A stretch of DNA of 64,000 bases from an uncultured Candidatus Actinomarina sp. (lineage in GTDB: Bacteria; Actinomycetota; Acidimicrobiia; Actinomarinales; Actinomarinaceae), in assembly GCA_902576605.1 (NCBI GenBank), contig CACGVI010000003.1:919-64918 (forward strand), given 5' to 3'. The notes under the pieces were generated by a model. It searched no databases. It was not told where the DNA came from and saw only the letters and a program-made list of their open reading frames with translations. How positions within the stretch are numbered: position 1 is the first letter of the stretch; every line of letters starts with the position of its first letter. The position numbers and the translations under genes were made by a program. Below are positions 1 to 60,456 of this stretch, in pieces.

Positions 1-167
1 TACAAATACTCTTCTCTTGCGTTAGAACCAAAATCCCCAAGTCTGAAATATTTAATCATTAATTGTCTAAAGGGACCAGTAATAATGTTGTCAACGCCAA
101 CATACGTAAGCACGCTTCCCCTTAAAAATGGGAGAAATAAACTACCTCTATCACGATAAAATTTCAT
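1..167 (-). CDS. Partial CDS (first 55 codons; gene runs off the left edge), hypothetical protein
   Basis: Minus-strand ATG at 167-165 opens a frame (MKFYRDRGSLFLPFLRGSVLTYVGVDNIITGP...) that stays open to base 1. It is below the ORF-track length cutoff. No motif recognised. Confidence 0.3.
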   Translation of the reverse strand, partial: MKFYRDRGSLFLPFLRGSVLTYVGVDNIITGPFRQLMIKYFRLGDFGSNAREEYL

Positions 168-218
168 ATATTTTTCTCTTAAGCTATCAGAATAACCTAA
201 ATTAGCTATTGTTTTTGT

Positions 219-914: not shown

Positions 915-937
915 GATAATTTTAACTACAAAAAATT

Positions 938-1606
938 ATGCCTTATACAAGAGTTTTACCTGAGGTAACGATAAGCGAGCTTACGCCAAGAAAAAGAAGG
1001 TTCTTTTTAAAACATCTCGCAAGATTTTTACTTTTGTTTGAAAGCGTTAAAGCAAAAGGGTCTTTTTTAGATAATAAACGAGTAATTATAACTGCTGCGC
1101 CACACCAGTCCGGCAAAGATGAATATTTAATGATTTTGATGATCTTAGCTTTAGATATTGATGTCTGTTATCTCTCTGCAAAGTGGACCATGCGAAGAAT
1201 ACCTAATCCATTTGTTAAGCCAAAAGATATCGACAATCAAGGAATTCCATGGCCACTTGGTTGGCTGCAAGAAATAGTATTTAGAAAATTTGGTGCTATC
1301 CCTGTAGACAGAAAAGGAAATAGTGGCCAGTACGACTCTGTAGTTCAGGAGCTTCTTGAGAGAGATAACTTTTTATTAATTATTACACCTGAAGGAAGGT
1401 TTGATGCAACCAGATTTAGAAGTAGTTTTTTATATTTAGCCAAAGAGTTAGAGGCTGAAGTTATGCCAGTACAAATCGATTATGAACACGATACTTTACA
1501 GTTTTTAGAAAGTTTAAATCTTGATGGTTCCGAGGATGAGGTCATACAAAGGCTTCGTTACTGTTTTGATGGAGTTAAGGGAAGAAAAAAGAGGTTTAAG
1601 GCTTAA
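938..1606 (+). CDS. PlsC-type lysophospholipid/glycerolipid acyltransferase
   Basis: HX4D motif (HQSGKD) and a downstream ITPEGR block characteristic of the LPLAT/PlsC superfamily. Confidence 0.6.
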   Translation: MPYTRVLPEVTISELTPRKRRFFLKHLARFLLLFESVKAKGSFLDNKRVIITAAPHQSGKDEYLMILMILALDIDVCYLSAKWTMRRIPNPFVKPKDIDNQGIPWPLGWLQEIVFRKFGAIPVDRKGNSGQYDSVVQELLERDNFLLIITPEGRFDATRFRSSFLYLAKELEAEVMPVQIDYEHDTLQFLESLNLDGSEDEVIQRLRYCFDGVKGRKKRFKA

Positions 1607-2457
1607 TGGAAGAAAAAATTCATCAACTCATAAAAGAGAGGAACCCTTGGTTGTTGAAAGATAACTTCCTATCTAAAACAATTTATACCTTGTTAAAAAA
1701 ATATCTTAGGTTTGATGAGACTGTTTTTGTTGGTGACCACATCCAGAGCATGACTGGCGAAGAGGCTTTTAATTGGTTGGGCAGCGAGTATACAAGCAAT
1801 GCCTCTGTAGAGGGCCTTGAAAATATTCCAAAAAATGGAAAGTTTTTAATTGTATCAAATCACCCTATGGGAGCTGCAGATGCGATAGCTCTTTATCATC
1901 AAATATATCCGGTTCGTAATGATCTTTTCTTTTTTGCAAACGAACTTTTTGTATACCTGCTGGGTGCATTTCATGAACTTTTAGCACCTGTTGTGTGGAA
2001 TAAAGAAAAAGAAACTCATTCAGCAAACAAAGTAACCCTTGAACGTCTAAGTGTTTTTTTTGGGGATGATAGGCCAGGTATCATCTTTCCATCAGGTCGT
2101 CTCTCTAAACTTACTTTTCTTGGTTTATGGGATAGGCCTTGGGAGAAAACACCTATTGCACTCGCAAAAAAATACAACTTTCCATTAATTCCCGTATATG
2201 TAGAGGGAAGAAACTCTTGGTTTTTTTATTTTGCCTCATACGTAAACAAGCAACTTAGAGATATCTCCCAGCTAAATGAACTGTTCAACAAAAGGGGGAA
2301 AGAGATTTCCATAAAGATTGGTAAGCCTGTGAATGTAAACACATTAAACGATAACACTGATATTGCAATTGGACAGATGTGGTACAGAACAGAAAGCTTA
2401 AGAAAAAAGTCTGTATTGAAATTAAACAGGTTTCTGTACTTGAGAAATTTTAAGTAA
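1606..2457 (+). CDS. Second acyltransferase of the LPLAT superfamily (putative-hemolysin/COG3176-like)
   Basis: VSNHPMGAADA and IIFPSGR blocks resemble the NHPxGxxD / FP(E/S)G motifs. Its start overlaps the upstream stop (TAATG), suggesting co-translation with 938..1606. Confidence 0.5.
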   Translation: MEEKIHQLIKERNPWLLKDNFLSKTIYTLLKKYLRFDETVFVGDHIQSMTGEEAFNWLGSEYTSNASVEGLENIPKNGKFLIVSNHPMGAADAIALYHQIYPVRNDLFFFANELFVYLLGAFHELLAPVVWNKEKETHSANKVTLERLSVFFGDDRPGIIFPSGRLSKLTFLGLWDRPWEKTPIALAKKYNFPLIPVYVEGRNSWFFYFASYVNKQLRDISQLNELFNKRGKEISIKIGKPVNVNTLNDNTDIAIGQMWYRTESLRKKSVLKLNRFLYLRNFK

Positions 2458-2459
2458 CT

Positions 2460-3461
2460 TTACTCTACAACTTCACCTGTGCTTGGGCTAACGCCTAAGT
2501 TGCCAACCATATATCCAAATAAAAGTGGTGTAGTAACTAAACCGCCAAGTCCATAAAATCTCCAAGTAAGCTCATAATCGCTCTGTGCTTGATTGATCAG
2601 TAGGTATAAAACAAAAAATAATCCATACAGTGAGGCGATTGCAGCTGCACTTACTTGTATTTTTCTATCATGATCCGTGTTGTAATACCAATTTGTTACT
2701 CTAAATACCCCAAAACTAAAAAGACTTCCTATACCAATAATCAACATCATTAGTCTTATGTTTCCTAAAGAAGCTTGTACCGATACATATAGAAATGAGA
2801 GAAAATAAAGCAAGGTCATTTGCTTTGGTGACATTTTAAATCGTATTGCGTATACGTAAACAATACTTGCAAGCATAGATTGAAAAAATAATGTCCCTGC
2901 CGCAAAAGCATCGTCGTAACCAAAAAAAACTCCGTACACTAAATATGGATGGAGGAACTGTGTGATATACATAACTAAAGCATAGATAGTTGATACCGCT
3001 ACAACCGAGGCCGTGTCTAGATGATCTTTGCTAGGTCTTGTCGTAAACACGTAATCTAACATTAAAAATGCTCCAAGAAATAACATTAAATGCGATGGAG
3101 AAACTAGTGGCTCTACGCCTGTTTCGATACCAAGTAACGTATGCCACACAGCATCTGATGCTCCACCAACTCCAAAGATGACTGCACCTAAAACTCCGAC
3201 ATCAAACTTGTAGTCTTTCATTTTATTTTTTACATACATTGCTACTAAAACTGAAAAAGCATAGCCTGAATATAAAACAGCATGCCAAGGTGTAAAAAAA
3301 GTTTCTATATCCTCGATTAAATATGTATGAGCACTCGAATCTATCCATGCACCGATAAAAAACCAAAGCATAGCGATAATGAATAATTTTCTATCTTTTT
3401 CATTTGTGATTACAACAGGTGATAATTTATTGAACATATAAATAGTATAAACCCAAAACAT
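2460..3461 (-). CDS. Polytopic integral membrane protein, function unknown
   Basis: The 333 aa ORF is hydrophobic throughout (about 9-10 predicted helices) with several intramembrane His. An alternative ATG at 3437 is also possible. No SD is visible for either start. Confidence 0.5.
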   Translation of the reverse strand: MFWVYTIYMFNKLSPVVITNEKDRKLFIIAMLWFFIGAWIDSSAHTYLIEDIETFFTPWHAVLYSGYAFSVLVAMYVKNKMKDYKFDVGVLGAVIFGVGGASDAVWHTLLGIETGVEPLVSPSHLMLFLGAFLMLDYVFTTRPSKDHLDTASVVAVSTIYALVMYITQFLHPYLVYGVFFGYDDAFAAGTLFFQSMLASIVYVYAIRFKMSPKQMTLLYFLSFLYVSVQASLGNIRLMMLIIGIGSLFSFGVFRVTNWYYNTDHDRKIQVSAAAIASLYGLFFVLYLLINQAQSDYELTWRFYGLGGLVTTPLLFGYMVGNLGVSPSTGEVVE

Positions 3462-3505
3462 TATGGGTATTTACGAAATTAAGTCTGACAAGATAGAATA
3501 AGTCC

Positions 3506-4666
3506 GTGGAAAACAAAGAGTTCAATCGTACACTTACTCTAAAAAGTTCTATTTATTTGGGTTTAAGCTCAATGATCGGAGCTGGACTTTTTAATAATAT
3601 TGCCCCTACAGCAAAAATAAGTTCGTACGGTGCGATCCTTGGACTACTTTTAGCTTCAACATTAGCAATAGCAAACGCTTCTTCTTCTGCACAACTCTCA
3701 TCACTGTTTCCAAAAACTGGTGGTACGTATTTGTATGCAAATGAAGTACTTGGGAGACCATATGCAATTATTGCTGGTGCAGTATTCATTATTGGCAAAA
3801 CAATTAGTTGTGTTGCAATAGCGCTAACAGTAGGCAACTATCTTTCTCCTGTATATGGAAAAGAAATTGGTGTTGTTTTATGTGTTTTAGTATTTTTGTT
3901 GAGTTTTTCCGGAATTCACAAAACAGCAGAAATCGCTAAATGGTTTGTTTGGATAATTTTTGGACTGCTTTTATTTTATGCTGTCTCAATCATTTCAACA
4001 CCAAATGTTGATTTAAGTATTCCAATCTTTGAGAGTGTTTCATTTGATAGTATCTTGTTATCTGCAAGTATATGGTTTTTTGCTTTTACTGGATACTCGA
4101 GACTTGCGACATTTGGAGAGGAAATAAAAAATCCTAAAGAAATTATCCCTACAGCAATTTTTACTGGTCTAGGGGTAACAATCTTGCTGTATTTTGGAAT
4201 TACTTGGTTAACTCTATCAATAATCAGTCCAGAATTTATTATGAACTCAAACACACCTCTTCTTGTTGCCATGGATGTGAGTAGGTTTTCAGAGTTTTCC
4301 TTTTTAATTGTTTTTGCTTCTTCTATTGCTATGGTTTCTGTGTTTCTTGCTTTGATGCCTGGAATTAGCAGAATATATGTTGCGCTTTCTAGAGACAGAG
4401 TACTTCCAAAAGCTTTTTCAAAAATTCATAAAAAATTTAACTCTGCTTATTTCTCAGAAGGCTTTGTGCTTATTTCTGTAATAATTGGTATTTATAGTTT
4501 TGATGTTGTTGAGTCTATAAGACTAAGCTCATTTTTTATTTTGATCTATTATACAATTACTAATTTATGTGTTGTGAGGCTTAAAAAGGGAGACCGGCTT
4601 TATTCAGTAGTAATTGCAATATACGGGTTTACAATGTGTTTATTGCTAGCTTTGCACTTACTTTAA
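3506..4666 (+). CDS. APC-superfamily amino acid/polyamine permease
   Basis: 386 aa with about 11-12 TM segments. The N-terminal block SSMIGAGLF...YGAILGLLLAS and FAFTGYSRLATFGEEIKNPKE are typical of APC permeases. GTG start. Confidence 0.7.
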   Translation: MENKEFNRTLTLKSSIYLGLSSMIGAGLFNNIAPTAKISSYGAILGLLLASTLAIANASSSAQLSSLFPKTGGTYLYANEVLGRPYAIIAGAVFIIGKTISCVAIALTVGNYLSPVYGKEIGVVLCVLVFLLSFSGIHKTAEIAKWFVWIIFGLLLFYAVSIISTPNVDLSIPIFESVSFDSILLSASIWFFAFTGYSRLATFGEEIKNPKEIIPTAIFTGLGVTILLYFGITWLTLSIISPEFIMNSNTPLLVAMDVSRFSEFSFLIVFASSIAMVSVFLALMPGISRIYVALSRDRVLPKAFSKIHKKFNSAYFSEGFVLISVIIGIYSFDVVESIRLSSFFILIYYTITNLCVVRLKKGDRLYSVVIAIYGFTMCLLLALHLL

Positions 4667-4854
4667 TAATTATTTTCACAAACATATACTTATTGTGAAA
4701 AAATTATCACAATCTTGCAGGGTTGTGAAATATTAATTATACTTAATTTATCGGTCAATCACGTGTATGCGTTGTAAATCACTCAAACACACTTCCATAA
4801 GTGATTGGCCTGTGTCTGATTTTATGTATACCCTATAATATTTATTCTTAGTCT

Positions 4855-5346
4855 GTGAAGAGATTTAAAACATCAAATAGTATGACTTATGATTATTCTG
4901 TTGAAAATTTATGGAAAGTTGTTTCATCCCCTAATTATTTAAATAACGTGCACCCTTTTTGTAAGGAAAACTCAATTATTAAATGGAACAACGATCACCA
5001 TGAAGACAAAATACTCTATTTAAATAACAAGACTTATATAAGAAAATTCGTAAGTTGGAAAGCTTTAAAGGGATATGATCTCTGGATTGGTGATAATAAT
5101 AAAGATCAATCTTTCGTTGAGTGGAGATTGGAAAAAGCAGGCAATAGATCAAAGCTAACTATTACGGTTTATCCATTTTTATTAAGCAATTGGCCAAGGA
5201 TATTATCTTTTCTGCCTTATTTTTTATATATAAATATTAAATTGAAATCTTACTTGTTCTCAGTGCTTAGTGGAATTGATTGGTATATTAAAGAAAATAC
5301 TCCTGTTCCAAAAAATCAATTTGGTAAACATAGTTGGTTCTCTTGA
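4855..5346 (+). CDS. Hypothetical protein, possibly SRPBCC (START/Bet v1-like) fold
   Basis: The N-terminal YSVENLWKVVSSPNYLNNVHP resembles the first strand and helix of polyketide-cyclase/SRPBCC proteins. The start is ambiguous (GTG 4855 or ATG 4882). TATAAT lies at about 4835-4840. Confidence 0.35.
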   Translation: MKRFKTSNSMTYDYSVENLWKVVSSPNYLNNVHPFCKENSIIKWNNDHHEDKILYLNNKTYIRKFVSWKALKGYDLWIGDNNKDQSFVEWRLEKAGNRSKLTITVYPFLLSNWPRILSFLPYFLYINIKLKSYLFSVLSGIDWYIKENTPVPKNQFGKHSWFS

Positions 5347-5347
5347 T

Positions 5348-5848
5348 TTAATGTTCTCTGGATCTAGATGATTTAGACATTGTCTTCTCTAAAGTACCGT
5401 TTGAAAATATGTAAGACTCAACACTATCAACTAAATGTTTACCATTTTGTGACTTTTGCATAATCACATCTACAGTCATACCCTCATAGGGAGAAATTAA
5501 AGTTATTGAATGCTGTCTGAACTTTTTAGAGGACTGGTCTCTTCGAATTACATCACTGATCATATTGTTTGATTCCCATGACCAGTCTTCACCAACAGCA
5601 ACGAATTTGCAAATGTGTTTTGTCTGTGATTTGTCAATTCTTGCTCCTGGACAAACTAGCATAGAACCTTCAACCCAAGGGTTTAAACCCAAACCATCTA
5701 TCTTTGGAAAAGCAATATTAAAAGAATCATCAACTATTGCCTCAATATCCCCTTTTTTAAAATTTCGTTCTTTTATAATTTCAGAAATTGTATTTTGTAT
5801 CCTAAATAAAGATTCTTCGTCTAAATTTTCAAGATTTACCCTGTCCAT
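5348..5848 (-). CDS. Hypothetical cytoplasmic protein
   Basis: Clean 166 aa ORF, convergent with 4855..5346. No motif recognised. Confidence 0.4.
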   Translation of the reverse strand: MDRVNLENLDEESLFRIQNTISEIIKERNFKKGDIEAIVDDSFNIAFPKIDGLGLNPWVEGSMLVCPGARIDKSQTKHICKFVAVGEDWSWESNNMISDVIRRDQSSKKFRQHSITLISPYEGMTVDVIMQKSQNGKHLVDSVESYIFSNGTLEKTMSKSSRSREH

Positions 5849-5881
5849 AACTATATATAAACAGTTAGGTGAGACAAATTG

Positions 5882-6037
5882 CTACTCTTCTTCTAAGGCA
5901 AGCTTTTGGCCAGCTGTTTCTTTTCCTCTTAAGTCACGAATGTCTACGCGAATTAACCCAATTACAAAAATGGTAAGAGTGCCTACTGGAAATAAAAGAA
6001 TTAAAAATAATGGTGATGACGTTAATGTCTCTATCAT
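5882..6037 (-). CDS. Candidate 51 aa single-pass membrane mini-protein
   Basis: Read by hand: MIETLTSSPLFLILLFPVGTLTIFVIGLIRVDIRDLRGKETAGQKLALEEE*. It has a hydrophobic core followed by a charged tail and is below the ORF-track cutoff. Confidence 0.25.
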   Translation of the reverse strand: MIETLTSSPLFLILLFPVGTLTIFVIGLIRVDIRDLRGKETAGQKLALEEE

Positions 6038-6087
6038 ATTTTTATCATAACAAATTTACATAGTATAATTAAATTGAGAAAGGAAAT

Positions 6088-6243
6088 ATGGCAAAACTCG
6101 GTTTGTACGCAAGCATGGTGTCTGTAATAGCGTCTGTGCTTATTTATATTGTATTAGATGATTCTGACCTTGCGATTTACGTAGGGCTTTGGGCTCCGAC
6201 ACTTATTCTTTATAGCCAGGCTTACGAACAAGCAAATAAGTAA
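6088..6243 (+). CDS. Candidate 51 aa membrane mini-protein
   Basis: Read by hand: MAKLGLYASMVSVIASVLIYIVLDDSDLAIYVGLWAPTLILYSQAYEQANK*. It is preceded by GAGAAAGGAAAT (the SD context also seen before other genes here) and by TATAAT at 6064-6069. Confidence 0.35.
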   Translation: MAKLGLYASMVSVIASVLIYIVLDDSDLAIYVGLWAPTLILYSQAYEQANK

Positions 6244-6369
6244 CTCAGTTTACGTAAAAATTAGACTGTTGCTATTATTTGATTGTGAATAAAGTTGAAA
6301 AAAAATCGTTCTTTGGCTTCTTAGCCATTGCATTCTTTTTACATTTATATTTAGTAATTTCACTTATCG

Positions 6370-6834
6370 GTGGGTAGAAAGCTTCTTCTTTTTCTTTTCA
6401 TAATTTCATGCACATCTTCATCAGATGTTTTAACAGAAACTTCACAAACAGTAGTTGAGAAATCCTTATCGTCTGAAGAGATTCTGGTTGAGATATTTGA
6501 AACCTACAAAGTATTCTCTGAGGATCCTGTTAAAGCAGTAAATACTATTTGGAGCTATGCTCATGAAAAAAATCAAGAAACAACAGGTCCGAAGGAACGG
6601 TTTTCTGTGATGCTTACTTCTGAACCATATAATTCGATAATTGATCTTAAAGATTATTCATACGAAATTATTTTTGAAAGTGAGGAAAATATTCATTATG
6701 AAGTAAAAGTACTCGCTAATAGTAGTAATTATTTTGTAATTACATGGGTATTTGAAAAAACAATTTGTGATGAGAAACCGTGTTGGAGAACTATAGGAGT
6801 AAGTCAGCCAGAGTTTTTTGATTCAGGAATTTAA
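6370..6834 (+). CDS. Lipoprotein, function unknown
   Basis: Signal peptide with lipobox (MGRKLLLFLFIISC); GTG start. Confidence 0.5.
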   Translation: MGRKLLLFLFIISCTSSSDVLTETSQTVVEKSLSSEEILVEIFETYKVFSEDPVKAVNTIWSYAHEKNQETTGPKERFSVMLTSEPYNSIIDLKDYSYEIIFESEENIHYEVKVLANSSNYFVITWVFEKTICDEKPCWRTIGVSQPEFFDSGI

Positions 6835-6838
6835 GCTT

Positions 6839-7468
6839 TTAATCTTCTAAGTTTTCTAAAGGGTTTTCTGGTTGGCAAATTTCAAATGCTTCTTGAACAT
6901 CTTCAGAACTAAAATCAATATCTGCATCTCTAAAAGCAAAGAATCCAAACTCTCCAGGTTTAGGATCTGGAAAATCTATTCCTTGATCTCTCATGCATTG
7001 GGAAAATTCTAAAGAAGCATCTACTAAAGCTGCCTCTACTTCTGGATCTAAATCGAATTGTTCTGGAAGAGCATTTCTTAAGATATCTTCACAGTTTTCA
7101 AAAGCTCTTTCAAATTCTTCTTCATTTTCAATTTCTAAATTATCAAATTGAGGATTTCCATCAATGTCGAAAGTTGGGTCAGGGAAGTTGATGCCTTCTT
7201 CACGCATACATTGAGCAAATTCAAGAACTCCCTCTTCAAAAGTTGTTTCCTCATCGACAATTGTTGTGGCAGTAGTAGATTCAATAGTCACAACCCCCTG
7301 AGACTCTTCTCCGCCAATTGTGCATGCAGTAAATACAGCTACAAAGGCTAAGGTTTTTACTTTCGAACTGCTTCCGCTGGTTGAATTTTTGAAGCTTTTA
7401 TAGCTGGATACACACCAGAAATAGCTCCAATTAATAATGCTAAAAGTACTGCTCCAAAAATTTGCCAT
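6839..7468 (-). CDS. Secreted lipoprotein with two C-x-R-E/D-x-G-I-x-F-P-D-P ... C repeats (paralog family P1); start uncertain
   Basis: A canonical lipoprotein signal (KVKTLAFVAVFTAC) is followed by two repeats, EFAQCMREEGINFPDP...FENC and EFSQCMRDQGIDFPDP...FEIC. The only in-frame ATG (7468) lies 112 nt inside the upstream permease gene. Confidence 0.5.
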   Translation of the reverse strand: MANFWSSTFSIINWSYFWCVSSYKSFKNSTSGSSSKVKTLAFVAVFTACTIGGEESQGVVTIESTTATTIVDEETTFEEGVLEFAQCMREEGINFPDPTFDIDGNPQFDNLEIENEEEFERAFENCEDILRNALPEQFDLDPEVEAALVDASLEFSQCMRDQGIDFPDPKPGEFGFFAFRDADIDFSSEDVQEAFEICQPENPLENLED

Positions 7469-8541
7469 ACAGGTATTGAGAATACAATATTTGTGTAATT
7501 AGTGTAACCCAAGGTTATCGCTGTTCCCAAAAGAACTCCAACGAGACCACCTATGCCCGATAAAACAATGCTTTCAAGTAAAAACTGATATCTAATTTCT
7601 CTTCTGGTAGCACCAATAGACCTTCTAACTCCTATTTCCATTCTTCTCTCTAATACAGACATGACCATAACATTTGCAATTGCAACTCCACCAACAAGAA
7701 GCGCAACTGAACCAAGTCCTAAAAGTAAGTTAGTGAATGCCTCTTCTGCTGCCTGTTGCGCCTCGAGCGCATCAGATGGACGAGTGACTTCTACTTGATC
7801 TGGGTTTTCAGGATTCATTGAAGGAGCAAGGACTTCAACAACATCCTCAATAAATGTTGGATTGGCTCTTAAGTAAATAGTTGTTGGCTCTTCATTAATA
7901 TCAAAAAGTGTCTTTGCTACACCATATCCAATAAATACCGATCTATCTAAGTCTGGATGAATTTTGAGTTCTTCTAATATACCAACTACTCCAAACCATT
8001 CGTTTTCTATCAATATCTTTGTAGGTTTAAATAAGTTATTAATCCCTAATCGCTGAGCAGTTACATTTCCTAGTACTGTTACTGGAATATCAGAAAGCCC
8101 ATCCTCAATAAATCTACCATCAACTAGATTACCGCCTATAACATCTAGTAGTTCGGCACTTGTAACAATTGTCGAAATACCACCGCCTTCAAATTCTGAA
8201 ATAAAATTACTTCTCCTTACTAGAAGGTCTGTTTGAGTTGTAGAAGTTACTTCCTGAACAGGTCCAATTCTTTCAACCATACCCAAAACCCCCTTTGGAA
8301 GTTCTTCCTGTGTACCAAAAAAACCAGCTTGTGGAGATGCTTTGACTAAGTTCGTGCCAAGAGACTCTAGTGTTGATAAAAGGTCCGCCCTGCCTGAAGC
8401 TGAAATTCCAGATACAGCAACAATTGCTGCGATACCAATACCAATACCAATTGAAGTAAGTGTCGCCCTTCCTTTTCTTGCTCTAACACCGTATAAAGCG
8501 ACAAAAAACAAGTCTTTAATTTTTAGTCTATTTCTTTTCAT
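7357..8541 (-). CDS. MacB/FtsX-type ABC transporter permease
   Basis: N-terminal TM helix, a large extracytoplasmic domain, then a C-terminal FtsX 3-TM bundle (LLGLGSVALLVGGVAIANVM...ERRMEIGVRRSIGATRREI). Overlaps the ATPase gene by 4 nt. Confidence 0.8.
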   Translation of the reverse strand: MKRNRLKIKDLFFVALYGVRARKGRATLTSIGIGIGIAAIVAVSGISASGRADLLSTLESLGTNLVKASPQAGFFGTQEELPKGVLGMVERIGPVQEVTSTTQTDLLVRRSNFISEFEGGGISTIVTSAELLDVIGGNLVDGRFIEDGLSDIPVTVLGNVTAQRLGINNLFKPTKILIENEWFGVVGILEELKIHPDLDRSVFIGYGVAKTLFDINEEPTTIYLRANPTFIEDVVEVLAPSMNPENPDQVEVTRPSDALEAQQAAEEAFTNLLLGLGSVALLVGGVAIANVMVMSVLERRMEIGVRRSIGATRREIRYQFLLESIVLSGIGGLVGVLLGTAITLGYTNYTNIVFSIPVWQIFGAVLLALLIGAISGVYPAIKASKIQPAEAVRK

Positions 8542-9221
8542 TGATTTACTATTTTTCCATCAACTAGTTCGATAACTTTTTTAAACATGCTCGCATGTTC
8601 TTGGTTGTGAGTGATCATTATTACTGTTTTACCTTGATTGTTTAAGTCTTTCAAAATATTGAGTATGTTTATGCCAGATTCCATATCTAAGTTTCCTGTT
8701 GGTTCATCTGCTAGTACGAATGCAGGATCTTGGACAAGGGCACGTGCAATCGCAACCCTTTGTTGTTGCCCACCGGACAATTCTTTGGGTAAATGGGTCA
8801 ATCTATCTCCAAGGCCAACCTGTTCTAAGACTTCCTTTGCTTTTTCTAACCTCTTTGATCTTGAAATACCTTGATATAAAAGACCTTCAGCGACATTTTC
8901 CTGAGCTGTTAAGCCCGGTAGTAGAAAAAAACTTTGAAATATAAACCCAATCTTCTCTCCCCTAAACTTTGAAAGTTCATTGTCTGAAAGTGCTGAAACA
9001 TCTTTTCCCTCAATTTCAATAGATCCATCAGTTATACTGTCTAGCAGACCAATCATATTTAAAAATGTTGATTTTCCACTTCCTGATTGACCAACTATTG
9101 AGACAAAGTCTCCTTCTTTAATTTCAAGCGAGACACCGTCTAAAGCTCTTACGGGTGGAGGTCCTTCATATACTTTTGAAATATTGTTAATAGAAATTAC
9201 AGTTTTTGTACTGGTCTTCAT
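8538..9221 (-). CDS. ABC transporter ATP-binding protein (MacB/LolD-like)
   Basis: Walker A GQSGSGKST, signature LSGGQQQRV, Walker B VLADEPTGNLD. Confidence 0.9.
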   Translation of the reverse strand: MKTSTKTVISINNISKVYEGPPPVRALDGVSLEIKEGDFVSIVGQSGSGKSTFLNMIGLLDSITDGSIEIEGKDVSALSDNELSKFRGEKIGFIFQSFFLLPGLTAQENVAEGLLYQGISRSKRLEKAKEVLEQVGLGDRLTHLPKELSGGQQQRVAIARALVQDPAFVLADEPTGNLDMESGINILNILKDLNNQGKTVIMITHNQEHASMFKKVIELVDGKIVNQ

Positions 9222-12056: not shown

Positions 12057-13157
12057 TTATTTGTTTCTCAAACCAAACAAAGGCCTTATTGGCTTGATGT
12101 TTTTTATAGCGTGATAAATAGTTAAAGAAAGAAAACAAATCAAGAATAGAGCAATTGGAAATTTTATTATTGGATGAATATTTATGCCAGAAAAAAAATA
12201 CATTACTGCCATTTGTACTGGTAAATGAACAATATAAACAGGATAAACAGCTGTTTTGTAATAAGTTAGTTGGGGCGAGTCCTTGTTAAGATAAACAGCC
12301 CCCAACCCAAGCATTAAAAATATAAAATTGAATGATTCAAAAGAGATTAAACGATTATCCAACGAAAAACCATCTTCAAAGTTGTTAAAGAATCTATAAA
12401 AGTAAAATGCGAACCCAATAAAAAAGTGAGTTTTCCAATTTCGTTTATTAGACTCCCAAAATGCTTCACCTTGGGAAACTAAGAGGATTCCAAGGAAAAA
12501 CCATATAAAACCCAGTAGAAAACCGTGACTTGTGTTTGCATACTCTTGATAAGATCTTCCATAATTTACAGACTCAGAATAGGCAGTAGTGTTTAACAAA
12601 TGGCCTTCAAGAATAATTGGAATTGAAAAAACAAAAACTCCACCCGGCATACTTAAAATTTTTGAAAATATATTTTCCTTTGCTGCTTTGTTTGAAATTA
12701 GATTTAAAAACGGAATCAGAATAAGGCAATAAATAAATATATTTTTTAGAAACCATAAATGAGCGCCATCAAATATTGTGATAACGCTTAACCATAAATA
12801 TTCACTAGACCAACCTTCGTAAAAAGTAAGAGTAATTGCAAGTGATGCAGTACCGAAGATTATTGTGCCAAAAATATAGGGAATAATTAAAATTTTTATT
12901 CTTTCTTTAAGCATTTCTACTTTTGTTCGTCTTTGAAAAGATAGTCTCAGAGCAATTCCCGAAATCAAAAACACAAGGGGTATTCTCCATGAATTCATTA
13001 TGCTTAATAAGTCCCAAACTTCATCATTAAATCTTTTGTTTTGTACAAATCCAATGTAAGGAGCAACGGAAGTAAACGAAATTGCAAGATGGTAAAAAAT
13101 AAGCAGAAACATTGCTATAGATCGCAATGCATCTATATCATATCTTCTTTGGTTCAT
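12057..13157 (-). CDS. Acyltransferase family 3 (membrane O-acyltransferase)
   Basis: MNQRRYDIDALRSIAMFLLIFYHL is the hallmark N-terminus of acyltransferase_3 proteins. There are about 10 TM segments. I place the start at ATG 13157, because the 13274 start would overlap the thioesterase gene. Confidence 0.65.
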   Translation of the reverse strand: MNQRRYDIDALRSIAMFLLIFYHLAISFTSVAPYIGFVQNKRFNDEVWDLLSIMNSWRIPLVFLISGIALRLSFQRRTKVEMLKERIKILIIPYIFGTIIFGTASLAITLTFYEGWSSEYLWLSVITIFDGAHLWFLKNIFIYCLILIPFLNLISNKAAKENIFSKILSMPGGVFVFSIPIILEGHLLNTTAYSESVNYGRSYQEYANTSHGFLLGFIWFFLGILLVSQGEAFWESNKRNWKTHFFIGFAFYFYRFFNNFEDGFSLDNRLISFESFNFIFLMLGLGAVYLNKDSPQLTYYKTAVYPVYIVHLPVQMAVMYFFSGINIHPIIKFPIALFLICFLSLTIYHAIKNIKPIRPLFGLRNK

Positions 13158-13185
13158 GTAAATAATATTAGTGCCTACGTTTTGA

Positions 13186-13620
13186 TTAATTAAACTGCAG
13201 GTTTTCTTTAAGATCGTCTGTAATTGGTGTTGGTTGCATAGTTGTTTGGTCAGTGTACACATGAACAGCTTCACAAGAACTTACTAACTCGCCTGTTTCT
13301 TTTAAAAACATTCCCATCGTCCAAGTCATGCTCGAGTTACCAATATCTTTGATTTTGACACCAATCTCAATATCTTGATCAAAGTAAAGTGGCTTGTTGT
13401 ATTGGACTAATATCTGTACTGTATGGAAATCTTTTTGAGTATCTTCTATGTCTTTTAGATAGTCATAATTTACATACTTAAAATAAGCAGTGATAGCTTG
13501 ATCAAAAAATGCAACATGATTTGCGTTATGCATTACGCCTTGTGGATCAAGTTCATAATATCTCACTGTCGCTTCCCAAAAAGCTTGGAAGTCATCTTTA
13601 GAAAGAGCTATTTTTGACAT
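13186..13620 (-). CDS. Hotdog-fold acyl-CoA thioesterase (YbgC/4HBT-like)
   Basis: 144 aa. The pattern RYYELDPQGVMHNANHVAFFDQA is typical of the 4HBT/YbgC N-terminal catalytic region. Confidence 0.65.
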   Translation of the reverse strand: MSKIALSKDDFQAFWEATVRYYELDPQGVMHNANHVAFFDQAITAYFKYVNYDYLKDIEDTQKDFHTVQILVQYNKPLYFDQDIEIGVKIKDIGNSSMTWTMGMFLKETGELVSSCEAVHVYTDQTTMQPTPITDDLKENLQFN

Positions 13621-16668: not shown

Positions 16669-16744
16669 AATTTCCTTTCTTACCTTGAGAAAATGTACGA
16701 AATTTTAGAAACTTCATTCCTTCTCTCGAGGATTGTTGTCTTAT

Positions 16745-16830
16745 AAATATTGAAGGCGACCTGACTTATCTTTCGAATCACAGTTGCGGGACAGTGTTAG
16801 GTTTTCACTAACTTCGCTTCAGTATTCTTT
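16745..16830 (-). promoter_or_regulatory. Cobalamin (B12) riboswitch, compact/variant type
   Basis: The minus strand reads GAAGCGAAGUUAGUGAAAACCUAACACUGUCCCGCAACUGUGAUUCGAAAGAUAAGUCAGGUCGCCUUC. The core GUGAAAAxC...CxGUCCCGCxACUGUGA and the B12-box-like AGUCAGGUCGCC align with the cobalamin riboswitch consensus. P1 is GAAGCG/CGCCUUC. Confidence 0.7.
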
Positions 16831-16845
16831 TAAGATGTTAGCAGA

Positions 16846-55562: not shown

Positions 55563-55760
55563 TTTAAATAGAGACATATTCATTAATAGGCAAAAAAGTA
55601 AAGCCTTTGGTCCTTGAAAAGCAGTAATTTATTGAATTTTTATACAAATTTTACAAAATTTAATACAAGCCTCATTATATTTTTGTAGAATAGCCATGTA
55701 ATTTAAGGAAGTTAAGTTACGTCAAAAATTAGGGGGAGCTTATGGAAGGTAGGTTAACCT

Positions 55761-56330
55761 ATGAAAAAATTTTTTACTCAACCAATTGGCGAGTTTTCTA
55801 GACAAAATTCATTAGTATTTTTGGTTGTAAACATTGTAGCCTTAGCTGCAAACTTTGAACTATTTAATGTAGACCCAGTAGAGAACTTGATAAATTTTCT
55901 TTGGGGATTTTCACTTTTCGGTATCGTAACTTCGGGCTATTACTTGGCAGAGGGCTATGTTCCAGAATATTGGAAAACAGCAGGTGGTGTCTTGGCTTCC
56001 GTTATATTAGTTGGAACATTTCTTGAAATGACACCTGAGTACCAAGAAACTGGTTTTTTACCTATGTATTTTTTCTGGGCCCTCAACCAATTAATTTACG
56101 GAGCTGTTCTTAGGGGTAATGGAATAGTACGCCCAGTTTTTGAAAATCTAACAATCTTAGGATCACTAATAATTGTTATTGGAACTGGTTCTGATTTATT
56201 TGGGTATGAACTTCCAGAGACACTTGATATTTTATTTTTAATCGGCTGGGTCTCTCTGATTACAGGATTAAGTTTTGGAAACTACTTTGCTTGGGGAGAC
56301 AAACTAGCATCTAGCGAAGGGGTTGAATAA
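55761..56330 (+). CDS. Cluster gene 1: six-TM membrane protein, unknown function
   Basis: 189 aa with six hydrophobic segments. First gene of a tightly packed 7-gene operon. Confidence 0.55.
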   Translation: MKKFFTQPIGEFSRQNSLVFLVVNIVALAANFELFNVDPVENLINFLWGFSLFGIVTSGYYLAEGYVPEYWKTAGGVLASVILVGTFLEMTPEYQETGFLPMYFFWALNQLIYGAVLRGNGIVRPVFENLTILGSLIIVIGTGSDLFGYELPETLDILFLIGWVSLITGLSFGNYFAWGDKLASSEGVE

Positions 56331-56332
56331 TC

Positions 56333-56656
56333 ATGTCAATTACTAACTCAAGAGAATTTACCATCAATGTTGGGAAAATTGCTGAAGCAGAAAAGTGGCT
56401 TTCTGAAGGAGCAGATTTATGGAAAGAAATTACAGGCAAAGATGCTGTAATTTACAAAGAAGGCTGGGGAGACCAGTACAAGATGTTATTTGTAACTACA
56501 TATGAATCAATGGGAGAGACTGAAGAAGTCGGAGAAAAAGTTATGACCGACAAGAGAGTAACCGATTGGTTTGAATATGGAATGACAAATGGTGATTTAA
56601 TTTCCGGTGCTGTTGATAGATTTTTTACAACCATAAAAGACACAAGAGAAGATTAA
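56333..56656 (+). CDS. Cluster gene 2: 107 aa soluble protein, probable single ferredoxin-like (dimeric alpha+beta barrel, ABM-type) domain
   Basis: Starts 2 nt after the gene 1 stop. Length and alternating pattern (FTINVGK...KMLFVTTYESMGE...) fit a beta-alpha-beta-beta-alpha-beta barrel. The fold call is an inference. Confidence 0.5.
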   Translation: MSITNSREFTINVGKIAEAEKWLSEGADLWKEITGKDAVIYKEGWGDQYKMLFVTTYESMGETEEVGEKVMTDKRVTDWFEYGMTNGDLISGAVDRFFTTIKDTRED

Positions 56657-56672
56657 AAGGAAAGAGAATATT

Positions 56673-57314
56673 ATGTATGTAAGACTTGGATTAGCAAATC
56701 CAAAAGAAGGTATGACAGAAGAGGCACTCAATTATTTTAGAGATGTAGCTATACCAGTATACGACCAAGTAAGTGGACTATTAGGAGCTGCTGCGTGTAT
56801 TAATAATGAAGGACAACTGATGGCTTGGACAACATGGGCTAATAATGATGCAAAAGAAGCAGCAATGTCTGAATTCCAGCAAAATCTTGCTGGGTTAGCC
56901 GATTATCTAGCTGAACCCCCAACTATATTTGAAGGACCAATGGTTGCTGGGCAGCAATATATTATGGTTCCAAAAGATGGTGAAAACCCATTTTTTGCAC
57001 GATTTGTACTTGGCGGCGGAACTCAAGAAGGTAAAACATATGATGATATTGCTGAGTTTATGACAAATACTGTTTATCCAGCGTATGAAAATGTTGAAGG
57101 TATATTTGCTACAGCAGCTTGTAAAGTAGATGACAACAGTGGGTTTAGTTTCAATTTTTGGACTAGCCATGATGCTGCACACGCAGCATCTGATGTAATC
57201 TCAAACGTCGTTCAAGATGCAGTAGCAAATTTAATAAAAGAAGCTCCGAAAGAGCTAACTGGAGAATGCAATGTATGGAAGAATTATGTTGACTTTCCAG
57301 TAGGAAAAATATAG
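56673..57314 (+). CDS. Cluster gene 3: tandem ABM-like (two ferredoxin-like barrel) protein
   Basis: Internal duplication: MYVRLGL...LMAWTTWANNDAKEAAMSEF and FFARFVL...SFNFWTSHDAAHAAS. The W-x-S/T-x-x-A/D-x-x-x-H pattern is ABM-like. Confidence 0.55.
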   Translation: MYVRLGLANPKEGMTEEALNYFRDVAIPVYDQVSGLLGAAACINNEGQLMAWTTWANNDAKEAAMSEFQQNLAGLADYLAEPPTIFEGPMVAGQQYIMVPKDGENPFFARFVLGGGTQEGKTYDDIAEFMTNTVYPAYENVEGIFATAACKVDDNSGFSFNFWTSHDAAHAASDVISNVVQDAVANLIKEAPKELTGECNVWKNYVDFPVGKI

Positions 57315-57324
57315 AAAGGAAATT

Positions 57325-57945
57325 ATGTTAAGTAATAAAGAGGTAAAAATAGGTTCAAGTATGGCAAGAATATTTGCATTTGCAGTTATTCCAAACTTTT
57401 TAATCCAAGCTTTTGCACTTGATCCAGCAAATCCTAATTATGATGCAACATGGGGTCCGGTAATTTCGGTACTCAATGTTGTAACTGGATTTGCTTTGTT
57501 ATTTGTATTTGCACTAACAACAAAGTTGTTTGGAGACGATAACAACCCATATGTAAGAATTACAGGATCTATTGCATTTGTTACGCAATGTATCTTTGTG
57601 CAAGACGCTTTTGCAGGACCATTAAATGAAAACAATAGTGATGCATTGTTTACAACAACAGAAATTTTGCAAACAACTGGAACCAACGGTCCGGTTTGGG
57701 CATTATTTTTAGGCATTTTTACACTATCAGTTTTAAGAAGTAGTAAAGTTAACCTTCTTCCAAGCTGGGGTGTAGGTGCTGGGTATGGCGCTGCAATACT
57801 GGTTACGGTTAATGGGGTAGGCGGAGCATTTGGACTTATTCCAGACGCAGCTAACTTGATTGTTTTAGTTTTAGGAGGAGTAATACTCTATCCCGCAACT
57901 GTGTGGGCTCTTGGGGTCTCTTTCCAAAACTCAGGAGGTGAATAA
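57325..57945 (+). CDS. Cluster gene 4: six-TM membrane protein (paralog of gene 5)
   Basis: Shares blocks with 57948..58556: NFLIQ(A/V)F(A/V)L(D/G)P...Y(D/N)(A/E)TWGPVI, LPSWG, and (I/F)PDAA. Confidence 0.55.
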   Translation: MLSNKEVKIGSSMARIFAFAVIPNFLIQAFALDPANPNYDATWGPVISVLNVVTGFALLFVFALTTKLFGDDNNPYVRITGSIAFVTQCIFVQDAFAGPLNENNSDALFTTTEILQTTGTNGPVWALFLGIFTLSVLRSSKVNLLPSWGVGAGYGAAILVTVNGVGGAFGLIPDAANLIVLVLGGVILYPATVWALGVSFQNSGGE

Positions 57946-57947
57946 TA

Positions 57948-58556
57948 TTGATAACTTCTGAAGAAAAAGAGCTTGGAAGAAGATTTGCATTAGGTGCGCT
58001 GGTATTTCTTCTAGCAAACTTTCTTATCCAAGTTTTCGTATTAGGTCCAGAAGCATCGGGCTATAACGAAACATGGGGTCCAGTAATCGGATTAATAAGC
58101 GCTTTGCAGCTAATGGCTGGAATGGGTGTTATTAGGCTGTCAGGAAAGCTTTTAGATGACAAGGATAAACCATTACTGACTGGATCAATTGGCTTAGGCT
58201 ATACGGTCTCAGCTGTAGGACTAGTAATGTCTCTAGTTCCAGCAGCAATTCATAATGCGTTTACAACCACTGCTTTATCGGCTGATATGGCTGCTGACCT
58301 TGTATTTTATGTAACGCCAGCAGTATTTTTGTTTATAGCTCCTTTTAATATACAATTTGCAAAATATGGTAAAAGTATTTTACCTTCATGGGGACCTGCA
58401 GTTGGTAATGCAGTTGGATACGGAATAATAGCAGTGACCGCTGTTTTCTTATCTGGACTGTTTCCTGATGCGGCATTTATTCCATTGCAAGTCGTCTTAG
58501 GAGTAGTATTGTCACCAGTTTGGTTCTTTGCAATATCTAAGGCATTTTCAAACTAA
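57948..58556 (+). CDS. Cluster gene 5: six-TM membrane protein (paralog of gene 4)
   Basis: TTG start 9 nt after AGGAGG. Conserved blocks as for gene 4. Confidence 0.55.
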   Translation: MITSEEKELGRRFALGALVFLLANFLIQVFVLGPEASGYNETWGPVIGLISALQLMAGMGVIRLSGKLLDDKDKPLLTGSIGLGYTVSAVGLVMSLVPAAIHNAFTTTALSADMAADLVFYVTPAVFLFIAPFNIQFAKYGKSILPSWGPAVGNAVGYGIIAVTAVFLSGLFPDAAFIPLQVVLGVVLSPVWFFAISKAFSN

Positions 58557-59201
58557 ATGTACGCAGTAGCGGTAACTATTTTATTCCAGGATGGAAAGCT
58601 TGGAGAGCTCAAAGACTTTTTTGAAAATTCAGGCTTTCCCGCTCTAGAAAAACTAAAAGGAGATATGTATTCAATTGCGTTCTTTAATCCAAAAGATAAT
58701 GTAAATCTAGGTATTGCGTTTATGAAGGATAAAGAAACTGCAGAAAAATTTGCTGAAATCAGAAATGAAAATTTATTGCAAATAAAAGACATTCTCACAA
58801 GTTTCCCAAGGGTTTATGAAGGAGAGTTAATCACTGGGAAAACTTTGCAAGACTCAGTAGTTGATAATCCCCTAGATTCATTGTTTTTAGCATTTGCAAT
58901 ATTAGATGTAAAAAATGTTGATGAGTATATGGATGTTCAAAAAGAAATTTATTTACCAAAGCTAGAACAAGACGAGGGCATTATTTCCTATGGAGCTTTT
59001 AAATCTGCAGAAAATACACTCGTTTTGTTTGAATTTTGGACTTCTCATGATGCAAAGCACAGTTTTGATGAAAAACTTAATGCTGATGAAAATATATACG
59101 AAAAATTCATGCCATTGATGGAAGGGTTCAAGGATTATTATGGTGAGCCTTATGCAATTAGGCAATTTACCGACTTTAAAGCAGGGAACTCAATTAATTA
59201 A
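58557..59201 (+). CDS. Cluster gene 6: tandem ABM-like protein (paralog of genes 3 and 7)
   Basis: The start abuts the gene 5 stop (TAAATG). Begins with MY. The second domain carries LFEFWTSHDAKHSF. Ends ...FTDF like its paralogs. Confidence 0.55.
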   Translation: MYAVAVTILFQDGKLGELKDFFENSGFPALEKLKGDMYSIAFFNPKDNVNLGIAFMKDKETAEKFAEIRNENLLQIKDILTSFPRVYEGELITGKTLQDSVVDNPLDSLFLAFAILDVKNVDEYMDVQKEIYLPKLEQDEGIISYGAFKSAENTLVLFEFWTSHDAKHSFDEKLNADENIYEKFMPLMEGFKDYYGEPYAIRQFTDFKAGNSIN

Positions 59202-59220
59202 GATAAATAGAAAGGAAATT

Positions 59221-59856
59221 ATGTACTTTAGAATAACGATTCCATCTCTTCAGGATGGAAAAAAAGACGAAGCCATATCTTTTGTTAAAGATAAAGTGAT
59301 GCCAGAGTTTGATGGCACACCTGGACTTCTAACGATGATGGCAGCTATTACAAGTGAGACCTCTGGAGTCAATTTGGCTGCTTATGAAAGTAAAGAAACT
59401 GTAGAAGCTCTAGAAGAAAAAATACAAGGAGTATTATCAGAAGCAGCTGGAATGATGGCAGCACCTCCTGTAATTTATCAAGGAGATGCAGTTTATGGTA
59501 AGGTCTACCAGACCATGGCTAAAGAGAGTACAAGACCAAGCTACTTAAGATTGGTTGTTGGTGTTGCAAAAGACACAGATGCAGTCTTAAGTTTTCTCAA
59601 AGAAAAAGTAGAACCGATTTATGAAGAGTCAGAAGGCCTTCAAGTAACTGGAGCTATTTTTGATGGAAGCAGCGCAATTAGCTGGAACTTCTGGGATTCC
59701 GAAGAGGACATGAACGCAGCTGTTGAAAAACTACAAGCAGCATTGGACAGCGAATCAGAGTCCGAACTGTTTGACGGAAGTACAGTAGCTTATATGGGAC
59801 CTGTGTATGCAGGTAAGTTATTTATTGATTTCAATGAAGGAGATACTCCAACATAA
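59221..59856 (+). CDS. Cluster gene 7: tandem ABM-like protein (paralog of genes 3 and 6)
   Basis: I prefer ATG 59221, preceded by ATAGAAAGGAAATT (the same 14 nt also precede the gene 4 ATG). Contains MYFRITIP..., PPVIYQGD and ISWNFWDSEEDMNAAVEKL. The 59140 ORF-track start overlaps gene 6. Confidence 0.55.
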   Translation: MYFRITIPSLQDGKKDEAISFVKDKVMPEFDGTPGLLTMMAAITSETSGVNLAAYESKETVEALEEKIQGVLSEAAGMMAAPPVIYQGDAVYGKVYQTMAKESTRPSYLRLVVGVAKDTDAVLSFLKEKVEPIYEESEGLQVTGAIFDGSSAISWNFWDSEEDMNAAVEKLQAALDSESESELFDGSTVAYMGPVYAGKLFIDFNEGDTPT

Positions 59857-59883
59857 AATCTTTGTGAATAGATAACGCATAGA

Positions 59884-59918
59884 AAAAAAGGGATTTTTTA
59901 TAAAATCCCTTTTTTTTG
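59884..59918 (+). terminator. Rho-independent terminator closing the 7-gene cluster
   Basis: AAAAAGGGATTTT-TTAT-AAAATCCCTTTTTTTT: a perfect 13-bp stem followed by a T-run. Confidence 0.75.
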
Positions 59919-60078
59919 TATTGAAAATATTTAGCATATTTCTATGTTTAGAAAAATAACTCCAACAAGAGTACTTCTTATTGTGCTACTTTTATATATA
60001 CTCTTTTCTGAAGATGACACGGCAAGAAGATTTAAGCAACTTCCTGAACTATTGTTAAATTATTTTTAAACTGTATTT

Positions 60079-60456
60079 ATGAATCTAAAAGACTTCTCAG
60101 GTGTTGAATATATAAATCTAATTACATACAAAAAAGATAAAACACCTATAACCACACCTGTATGGGTTGCTGACTTTTCTAATTCATTAGTTATAACAAC
60201 AAGTTTGAACGCAGGAAAAGTTAAGAGGGTTAGAAACAATGGCAAGGCAACAATTTATATTACTAACCAAAGTGGTTCTAAAAAACTATCAGAAAGCCTT
60301 GACCTTGAGGCATCACTTATTGAGGATGTAGATCTAAAAAAGCAGGCTGCAGACATAATTAGAAAAAAATATGGAGTGATAGCAAAAATGATTATGAAAG
60401 GACCCGATGAAAATAGGGCAATTATTAGATTAGAAGAAAAGGGAGGTGGAAAATGA
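60079..60456 (+). CDS. Small PPOX-class (pyridoxamine-5'-phosphate-oxidase-like split barrel, possibly F420-dependent) protein
   Basis: 125 aa. The pattern INLITYKKDKTPITTPVWVA...LVITTSLNAGKVKRVRNNGKATI resembles the PPOX/F420-dependent family common in Actinobacteria. The assignment is tentative. Confidence 0.45.
   Translation: MNLKDFSGVEYINLITYKKDKTPITTPVWVADFSNSLVITTSLNAGKVKRVRNNGKATIYITNQSGSKKLSESLDLEASLIEDVDLKKQAADIIRKKYGVIAKMIMKGPDENRAIIRLEEKGGGK

Follow-up and report, generated by a model that had tools for sequence, protein, structure and literature searches.

A two-gene module of tandem ABM-fold barrels and six-helix membrane proteins, expanded into variable arrays in Candidatus Actinomarinales

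A 64,000-nucleotide stretch of DNA from an uncultured Candidatus Actinomarina species (assembly GCA_902576605.1, contig CACGVI010000003.1, positions 919 to 64,918; hereafter the window) contains seven adjacent genes, g1 to g7. They encode three membrane proteins (g1, g4, and g5), three tandem-barrel proteins (g3, g6, and g7), and one small soluble protein (g2). Comparison among species shows this array to be the expansion of a two-gene module: a cytoplasmic tandem barrel of the ABM (antibiotic biosynthesis monooxygenase) fold, followed by a membrane protein with six transmembrane helices and both termini predicted to lie in the cytoplasm. The barrels belong to a known superfamily, of which they are new and divergent members. 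Among free-living surface-ocean bacteria, their host lineage, Ca. Actinomarina, is one of the smallest and most abundant.

When one genome per species was scanned, 38 loci were recovered. Across Ca. Actinomarinales the same two genes, for an M20 peptidase and a PPOX-like protein, flank the array, whose position does not differ among the complete loci. In each locus, all open reading frames (ORFs) between these two conserved genes were classified. Three recurrent families resulted: F1, the tandem barrels (106 members; g3, g6, and g7 in the window); F2, membrane proteins (74 members; g1 in the window); and F3, membrane proteins (63 members; g4 and g5). Optional components are the g2 type, F6 (11 loci); a 117-residue DUF1428-like protein, F7 (7 loci); and two shorter membrane types. 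The general gene order is one to three F2 genes, optionally F3, one or two F1, optionally F7, one or two F3, and one or two F1, with short gaps throughout.

Copy number is far from constant. When subtypes are split at 45% identity, F2.a (the g1 subtype; 35 loci) and F1.a (g3; 39 loci) are nearly universal, and the remaining subtypes come and go, including F3.a (g4; 16 loci), F1.c (g6; 23), and F1.b (g7; 26). The 33 complete species loci present 28 subtype architectures, with five to nine genes, two to five membrane genes, and one to four tandem barrels. The seven-gene layout given in a preliminary description of this DNA is therefore real, but it is one species' snapshot of a copy-number-variable array. 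Species whose M20 peptidase is 95-98% identical to that of the window carry different gene sets, and the L024 array is a mosaic relative to the window: g4, g5, and g7 are 95-97% identical, g3 77%, and g1 52%. Such mosaic identities among close species indicate that array content has been shaped by recombinational reshuffling of paralogs, rather than by simple descent.

The basic unit, one tandem barrel and then one six-helix protein, was recognized from barrel-membrane pairs in three genomic contexts. Loci L113 and L114 read PutA, F1.a, F3.d, PPOX; L041 and L053 read PutA, F1.e, F3.c. The third arrangement (L079 and about ten similar contigs) lies in a different chromosomal context: panB on the minus strand, an F1.b-like barrel gene, an F3.c-like membrane gene, and a gene for secreted MsrA. 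In L079 the barrel of this stand-alone pair is 77% identical to g7 of the window, and MsrA (199 residues, with a signal peptide-like amino terminus) is encoded 35 nt downstream of the pair.

In the window, all seven genes lie on the same strand, separated by 2, 16, 10, 2, 0, and 19 nt from g1 to g7; ORF coordinates and spacing bear out the operon as first described. They follow a non-coding spacer of 198 nt (55563-55760). To judge from the single leader, single terminator, and tight spacing, the seven genes are one transcription unit. Comparison with orthologs from other species gave ratios of nonsynonymous to synonymous substitution (dN/dS) of 0.06-0.11 for all seven genes. This purifying selection marks the ORFs as real, constrained genes; dN/dS for flanking genes (an FtsX-type permease, the M20 peptidase, and the PPOX-like gene) is 0.04-0.08. 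The g7 start has two candidates. The longest ORF begins at 59140 and encodes 238 residues, but would overlap g6 by 62 nt (59140-59220 being the extra segment). The start at 59221 has a better ribosome-binding site (GAAAGGAAATT), yields the MY... amino terminus seen in the paralogs, and is called on other contigs; across contigs, gene callers split between 238 and 211 residues. Scans of all seven proteins against Pfam, NCBIfam, PADLOC, and PHROGs returned nothing above threshold (none of the seven matches a PADLOC model of known anti-phage defence). The earlier view that no pathway can be assigned still holds.

The three barrels are 23-28% identical over their full lengths (g7 versus g3, 28%), and are paralogs as the preliminary description held. 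It also proposed an internal duplication, which is seen as a match between the amino- and carboxyl-terminal halves of both g3 and g7 (E 1e-8 to 1e-10, small database). The shared sequence motifs that it listed are present, except that the g6 domain junction reads FPRVYEG instead of the PP form; the FW motif of g7 lacks His. The AlphaFold2 (AF2) model of g3, built from an 11-sequence alignment, contains two β-α-β-β-α-β units (predicted local distance difference test [pLDDT], 91.7; predicted template-modelling score [pTM], 0.86). Its top Foldseek matches in the PDB are the tandem-ABM "putative monooxygenases" 3mcs and 3f44 (TM-score 0.72-0.78), followed by an anthrone-oxidase-like protein, sulfur oxygenase reductase, PenE, and a marine-metagenome structural-genomics protein. 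The placement of g6 and g7 in the ABM fold is through their full-length homology to g3.

Direct Pfam matches to the ABM family (PF03992) are below threshold or absent: g3 scores 17.4 bits and g6 15.1 bits against a gathering cut-off of 23.1 bits, and g7 has no hit. Yet a search of 1.84 billion representative proteins with a barrel-family profile yielded 344 relatives at E <= 1e-3 (13 at E <= 1e-30), and 46 of 65 distant full-length hits carry PF03992 (best E 2e-22). The barrels therefore are a divergent, lineage-specific branch of the ABM superfamily, and the ferredoxin-like, ABM-type fold originally proposed for them stands. Known tandem ABM proteins (3mcs FN1347; 3f44; the anthrone-oxidase-like 5f9p; PenE, 9kdp; PF03992 superfamily) likewise consist of two fused ferredoxin-like units of about 100 residues that form one barrel. 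In contrast to these, the window barrels are only 7-12% identical to the solved structures, all three lie under the Pfam threshold, and they are always encoded with a novel membrane protein and occur in variable arrays, whereas known ABM members are mostly stand-alone or in polyketide clusters.

Conserved positions in 88 distinct barrels are Gly and Pro residues plus L72, D124, E139, W163 (100%), D207, and F208. This set conserves neither His nor Cys, and no His reaches 85% conservation. The W-x-S-x-x-A-x-x-A signature is present after β3; the ABM-signature Trp is 100% conserved and the remainder of the pocket differs among paralogs, a pattern that would fit diversified ligand specificity. Among the closest non-Actinomarina barrel relatives are two long, Ala-rich proteins, P0110 (934 residues) and P0119 (721 residues), each with a signal-like stretch at the amino terminus and five ABM-like repeats, between which lie PN(A/P)PxIVEG linkers; these look like secreted multi-barrel proteins.

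The "single barrel" ascribed to g2 is the weakest element in the description of the operon. It combines a sub-threshold match to Pfam NIPSNAP (PF07978; 19.3 bits versus a cut-off of 22.3, E 1.3e-3, residues 6-83) with a β-α-β-β-α-β pattern read from the sequence; a single barrel is possible. There is no PDB sequence match to g2. Two candidate relatives of the tandem barrels were rejected on hhalign comparison: g2, which has no profile similarity to them, and the 117-residue F7 protein, for which support was lacking.

Turning to the membrane proteins, hydrophobic transmembrane segments were predicted in g1, g4, and g5 only. The preliminary description recognized g4 and g5 as paralogs, which they are (29% identity, full length), but the paralogy extends further. 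Comparison of the g1 family (F2) with the g4/g5 family (F3) by hhalign gave 94-96% (E 3e-9, 189 columns; 96% for g1), and on these profiles g1, g4, and g5 belong to one membrane superfamily in which g1 is distant from g4 and g5. The homology signal sits in the amino-terminal halves. It does not reflect mere hydrophobic composition, because control comparisons of amino- with carboxyl-terminal halves gave only 0.4-14%.

The AF2 model of g5 (pLDDT 80.6) has six transmembrane helices. Positive charges fall in the amino terminus, loops 2 and 4, and the carboxyl terminus, which argues for an N-in/C-in topology; the other loops, including the outer loops, are acidic. Conserved motifs are GPxxxGYxxTWGP in outer loop 1, LPSWG in inner loop 4, and PDAA in outer loop 5. 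The preliminary description had suggested a membrane-associated redox, oxygenase, or ligand-handling system. No His or Cys occurs among the conserved columns, and a redox role for the membrane proteins finds no support in the alignment.

Known relatives were sought widely. Foldseek of the g5 model against the PDB and BFVD (viral structures) gave no significant match (none at E <= 0.001, best E about 0.3). PDB-sequence searches, with single sequences and family profiles including the membrane families, gave nothing meaningful. The one Pfam signal lies below threshold: g5 matches DUF2871 (PF11070), a family of uncharacterized bacterial membrane proteins, with residues 13-97 aligned to the carboxyl-terminal two-thirds of the model, but at 24.0 bits it lies under the 27.4-bit gathering cut-off (E 5e-5), and only 2 of 52 family members match. 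Weak matches of a few g1-type proteins to HlyIII, ETR1_N, and EamA were rejected as compositional (few members, E ~1e-3, the conserved His and Asp of those families absent). A literature search returned nothing on the function of DUF2871 or on the array locus. The six-helix proteins thus apparently constitute a new membrane-protein family, with no known relatives in the libraries and structures searched.

The preliminary description saw no regulator in the operon and overlooked a conserved, structured leader RNA. A 78-nt conserved element (55686-55763) heads the array, regardless of the upstream gene (M20, monooxygenase, or PutA) and of the leading F2 subtype. In 31 species a presumed promoter box (TAGAAT, TAGACT, or TATAAT) aligns at the same place. 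Two hairpins follow, connected by an A-rich linker with a G-run. The first, or 5', hairpin is paired in 98.6% of alignment cells (31 species), has a z-score of -3.9 in the window, and shows compensatory double changes at six of nine pairs, mostly from one genus-level event. Several of its G-U pairs would mismatch on the other strand or in DNA, so the hairpin presumably acts as RNA on the plus strand. The second hairpin is present in minimum-free-energy folds of three of the four species tested; its sequence is highly conserved, with weak covariation and register shifts in one genus. The GGAAG loop of the 5' hairpin repeats the ribosome-binding GGAAGG.

With a covariance model, exactly one copy of the leader was found in the window and in each of 33 of the 38 genome loci; the 769 kb searched gave no further convincing match. 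Further copies occur in new metagenomic loci, and the minimal loci keep only the truncated Shine-Dalgarno (SD) part. Rfam contains no match to the leader. Gram-positive bacteria use 5' mRNA stabilizers that include 5'-terminal stem-loops and "STAB-SD" elements, and CsrA-type sites present GGA in hairpin loops. The leader resembles both, in that an SD-like GGAAG is carried in the loop of a hairpin near the presumed 5' end and a second GGAAG(G) forms the true ribosome site; it differs in belonging to no Rfam family and in being found, in the sequence searched, only at the array locus. (CsrA is not known in Actinobacteria.) With its SD-mimic loop, the 5' hairpin would most likely be an mRNA stabilizer or ribosome recruiter; equally possible is a binding site for a protein or a small RNA (sRNA), the latter as an sRNA target for 6C-like C-rich loops.

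At the distal end, the perfect inverted repeat noted earlier is confirmed, although its arms are 15 nt (Table 1) rather than the 13 bp at 59884-59918 first given. Loci whose last gene is a barrel conserve this terminator, in which one compensatory change, GGG/CCC to GAG/CTC, is seen.

Table 1. Features of the array in the window and of related loci
Sequence	Feature	Coordinates	Strand	Description
Window	-10-like box	55686-55691	+	TAGAAT, preceded by TG; presumed promoter, read from sequence
Window	5' leader hairpin	55698-55720	+	9-10 bp; GTAATTTAA - GGAAG loop - TTAAGTTAC
Window	Second leader hairpin	55737-55755	+	Weaker; GGAAG(G) loop is the g1 ribosome-binding site
Window	g1	55761-56330	+	189-aa membrane protein, six transmembrane helices, F2.a (ORF and transmembrane scan)
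Window	g2	56333-56656	+	107-aa soluble protein, possible single α/β barrel, F6, optional component
Window	g3	56673-57314	+	213-aa tandem ABM-fold barrel, F1.a, near-universal copy
Window	g4	57325-57945	+	206-aa membrane protein, six transmembrane helices, F3.a
Window	g5	57948-58556	+	202-aa membrane protein, six transmembrane helices, F3.b, TTG start
Window	g6	58557-59201	+	214-aa tandem barrel, F1.c
Window	g7	59221-59856	+	211-aa tandem barrel, F1.b
Window	Intrinsic terminator	59883-59916	+	Perfect 15-nt arms, 59883-59897 / 59902-59916, then T run
Window	Promoter-like site	59921-59948		Near the 41-aa ORF
Window	41-aa ORF	59944-60069	+	Unannotated; one transmembrane helix
Window	PPOX-like gene	60079-60456	+	125 aa
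Window	AdoCbl (cobalamin) riboswitch	16706-16839	-	57.8 bits
L079	Stand-alone pair	4886-6228		Within 4886-6863; also in L074, L078, L082, L087-L090, L105, L106
L007	Luciferase-like monooxygenase	7071-8102		Array-edge gene
L013	PutA	5448-8762		Array-edge gene
L017	Acyltransferase	12149-13249		Array-edge gene
L026	Small cupin	2358-2714		Array-edge gene

The operon is specific to the order Ca. Actinomarinales and is vertically inherited. Titles of the 38 loci name Ca. Actinomarina, OCS155, Actinomarinales, or unclassified Actinomycetota or Acidimicrobiaceae, and the conserved neighbourhood in these species-level genomes answers the question of synteny raised by the preliminary description. One exception is labelled Cryomorphaceae: a metagenome-assembled genome (L008, BOWN01000001.1) in which the first 9 kb (1-9153) of a 617-kb contig resemble Actinomarina, with an FtsX-type permease and a g3 that match those of the window at 98% and 92% identity, respectively. 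The similarity ends inside the array, with unrelated genes after it; guanine-plus-cytosine (GC) content alone does not reveal the junction, and the contig is probably an assembly or binning chimera. The exact g3 protein occurs in 73 blocks of the assembly collection, and the contigs shown are marine (TARA, JGI, and other) with the same gene order. Scanning metagenomes with one membrane subfamily gave 75 loci, which are marine and Actinomarinales-like by their stated environments and by the flanks of the 40 annotated loci. Almost all of the proteins returned by word-seeded searches, for which g3, g5, and a 52-sequence membrane alignment served as queries, lack a name or a Pfam domain.

Downstream of the array, the PPOX-like gene encodes a PPOX-class F420-type oxidoreductase-like protein (TIGR03666, 70 bits versus a cut-off of 84.9); it is a separate transcription unit, yet it adjoins the array in every complete locus. 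Nine nucleotides upstream of it is a small unannotated ORF with the carboxyl-terminal motif ARRxxQLPxLLLNYF. Almost every locus, even one ending with an acyltransferase, keeps this ORF in the same place; a promoter-like site lies close by. Other edge genes are lineage-specific. Between M20 and the array, some lineages carry PutA or a luciferase-like monooxygenase of the TIGR03858 family; at the far end are a cupin and a membrane acyltransferase (Acyl_transf_3), the latter 22 nt beyond the last barrel gene. Elsewhere in the window, the AdoCbl riboswitch scores above its gathering threshold.

What might such modules do? Tentatively, and with a probability well short of even, they may be membrane-coupled ABM modules that bind or oxidize small hydrophobic compounds, the range being set by the set of paralogs. 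The barrels would work at the cytoplasmic face of their membrane partners, binding small hydrophobic molecules or, as ABM proteins do, oxidizing or isomerizing them without a cofactor. The ligands could be aromatic or quinone-like, possibly photo-oxidation products, and would be admitted or held by the membrane subunits. Each species' own paralogs would fix the range of compounds handled, and the 5' hairpin would stabilize the long mRNA or recruit ribosomes. Oxidative chemistry is weakly suggested by the neighbours: MsrA, OsmC, the luciferase-like monooxygenase, the PPOX/F420-type gene, and the cupin.

Several observations weigh against this proposal. Those neighbours either form transcription units of their own or were seen in one lineage only. 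Among the 33 complete loci the number of membrane genes shows no correlation with the number of barrel genes (r = -0.08), which argues against fixed 1:1 complexes; a 1:1 membrane-barrel pairing was rejected on this ground, and no fixed cognate subtype pairs were seen. Barrel relatives outside the order, where they can be placed, are stand-alone or barrel-barrel pairs that lack a membrane partner. (One stand-alone distant relative adjoins OsmC.) Apart from structural residues, the 88 barrels conserve only Trp163, Glu139, and Asp124, and a shared catalytic site is therefore doubtful. The membrane proteins lack conserved polar intramembrane residues, and a search for an internal 3+3 repeat in them detected none.

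A bolder form of the proposal, which we hold to be somewhat doubtful, makes the pair a new two-component membrane module with a new fold family of membrane proteins that arose and expanded in Actinomarinales alone; the combinatorial repertoire, under its dedicated new leader RNA, would decide which dissolved organic molecules each species takes up or transforms.

Uptake alone is an unlikely alternative, in which the six-helix proteins would be channels for small solutes, vitamins, or precursors; the barrels would bind or trap the substrates in the cytoplasm; and the repertoire would match each species' auxotrophies. With about 190-205 residues, six helices, and N-in/C-in topology, the membrane proteins resemble energy-coupling factor (ECF) S-components or other solitary carriers in size and topology, and the conserved outer loop 1 suggests an external binding site. 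Extensive auxotrophies are reported for Actinomarina (bioRxiv 10.64898/2026.04.03.716425), and array content varies by species. However, no solved transporter or S-component was matched by Foldseek of the g5 model, no Pfam transporter family was found, and the proteins have neither an internal repeat nor conserved charged residues within the membrane.

Rather less likely is protection from oxidative damage, in which barrels would destroy or sequester reactive quinone- or peroxide-type photoproducts in the membrane of a high-light surface organism, and membrane proteins would anchor or present them. The ABM fold is established, one source's automatic annotation labels a homolog "quinol monooxygenase YgiN", and the signal-peptide MsrA after the stand-alone pair and OsmC beside a distant barrel relative would suit this role. 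Each of these two adjacencies, though, occurs in a single lineage; neither the barrels nor the membrane proteins have conserved redox-active residues; and protection leaves as many as nine paralogs, and their differences among species, unexplained.

Variation driven by phages or predators, with membrane proteins as envelope-exposed receptors or decoys on a small flexible island, is improbable. It would account for the 28 architectures in 33 species, and for different sets and mosaic identities in species with nearly identical M20 peptidases. Orthologs are nonetheless under strong purifying selection, outer loop 1 is among the best-conserved parts, and six identical-g3 contigs from different samples all share the window's layout. 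PADLOC and PHROGs gave no relatives, viral contigs carry no relatives of the barrels or the membrane proteins, and the cytoplasmic barrels are left without explanation. The flexible genomic islands known from streamlined marine bacteria, among them the tRNA-bounded glycosylation island or hypervariable region (HVR) of Actinomarinales (PMC7771536; bioRxiv 10.64898/2026.04.03.716425), do share a fixed position and species-specific content with the array. The array differs in having no tRNAs or glycosyltransferases, in its purifying selection, and in that its genes come from three or four lineage-specific families of paralogs and are not foreign.

The two remaining alternatives are those most clearly disfavoured by the data. 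Heme or tetrapyrrole handling is very improbable, although the preliminary description had likened the barrels to chlorite dismutase, HemQ (coproheme decarboxylase), and DyP, which are tandem ferredoxin-like barrels of similar size. Chlorite dismutase/HemQ and HmoB structures are among the g3 Foldseek matches (E about 1e-5), and the conserved PPOX neighbour belongs to an F420-type class that includes biliverdin reductases. But chlorite dismutase/HemQ appear at rank 28 and below (TM-score 0.53-0.59), under the tandem ABM proteins, a generic fold similarity; no Pfam Chlor_dismutase or DyP match was found; and the barrels have no proximal His, nor, like the membrane proteins, any conserved His, so the idea is not supported. 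IsdG and MhuD heme oxygenases use an Asn-Trp-His catalytic triad, of which the barrels keep only Trp. That the array came in by horizontal transfer as an island, or is a chance string of hypothetical ORFs (no library annotates it), is scarcely credible given window-like GC content, no tRNA in the window, no recombinase family in a Pfam scan of locus proteins, a position fixed across the order, families restricted to the lineage, purifying selection, and a shared leader and terminator that bound the array.

The array stands out in its genomic setting. The Ca. Actinomarina genome is roughly 1.1 Mb and reportedly has only 29-44 paralogs; Lopez-Perez et al. stressed this scarcity and described one flexible island only, for glycosylation (PMC7771536). 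A 2026 complete-genome preprint discusses only the tRNA-bounded HVR (bioRxiv 10.64898/2026.04.03.716425), and neither paper mentions the array locus. With its membrane family, two-gene module, combinatorial arrays, and leader RNA unmatched in the libraries, structures, and literature searched, the system is architecturally new.

Together, these results point to an important, lineage-defining function that current annotation has missed entirely, since despite extreme streamlining every species found here keeps five to nine genes at a single locus, all paralogs in families with essentially no members elsewhere, and their set is reshuffled between species. The locus offers a small, defined, and expressible two-gene module, and the array can serve as a marker by which Actinomarina species are told apart in metagenomes. 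If the barrel and six-helix pair is indeed a new two-component module, the array would be a niche-partitioning locus in the otherwise almost paralog-free genome of an abundant ocean photoheterotroph.

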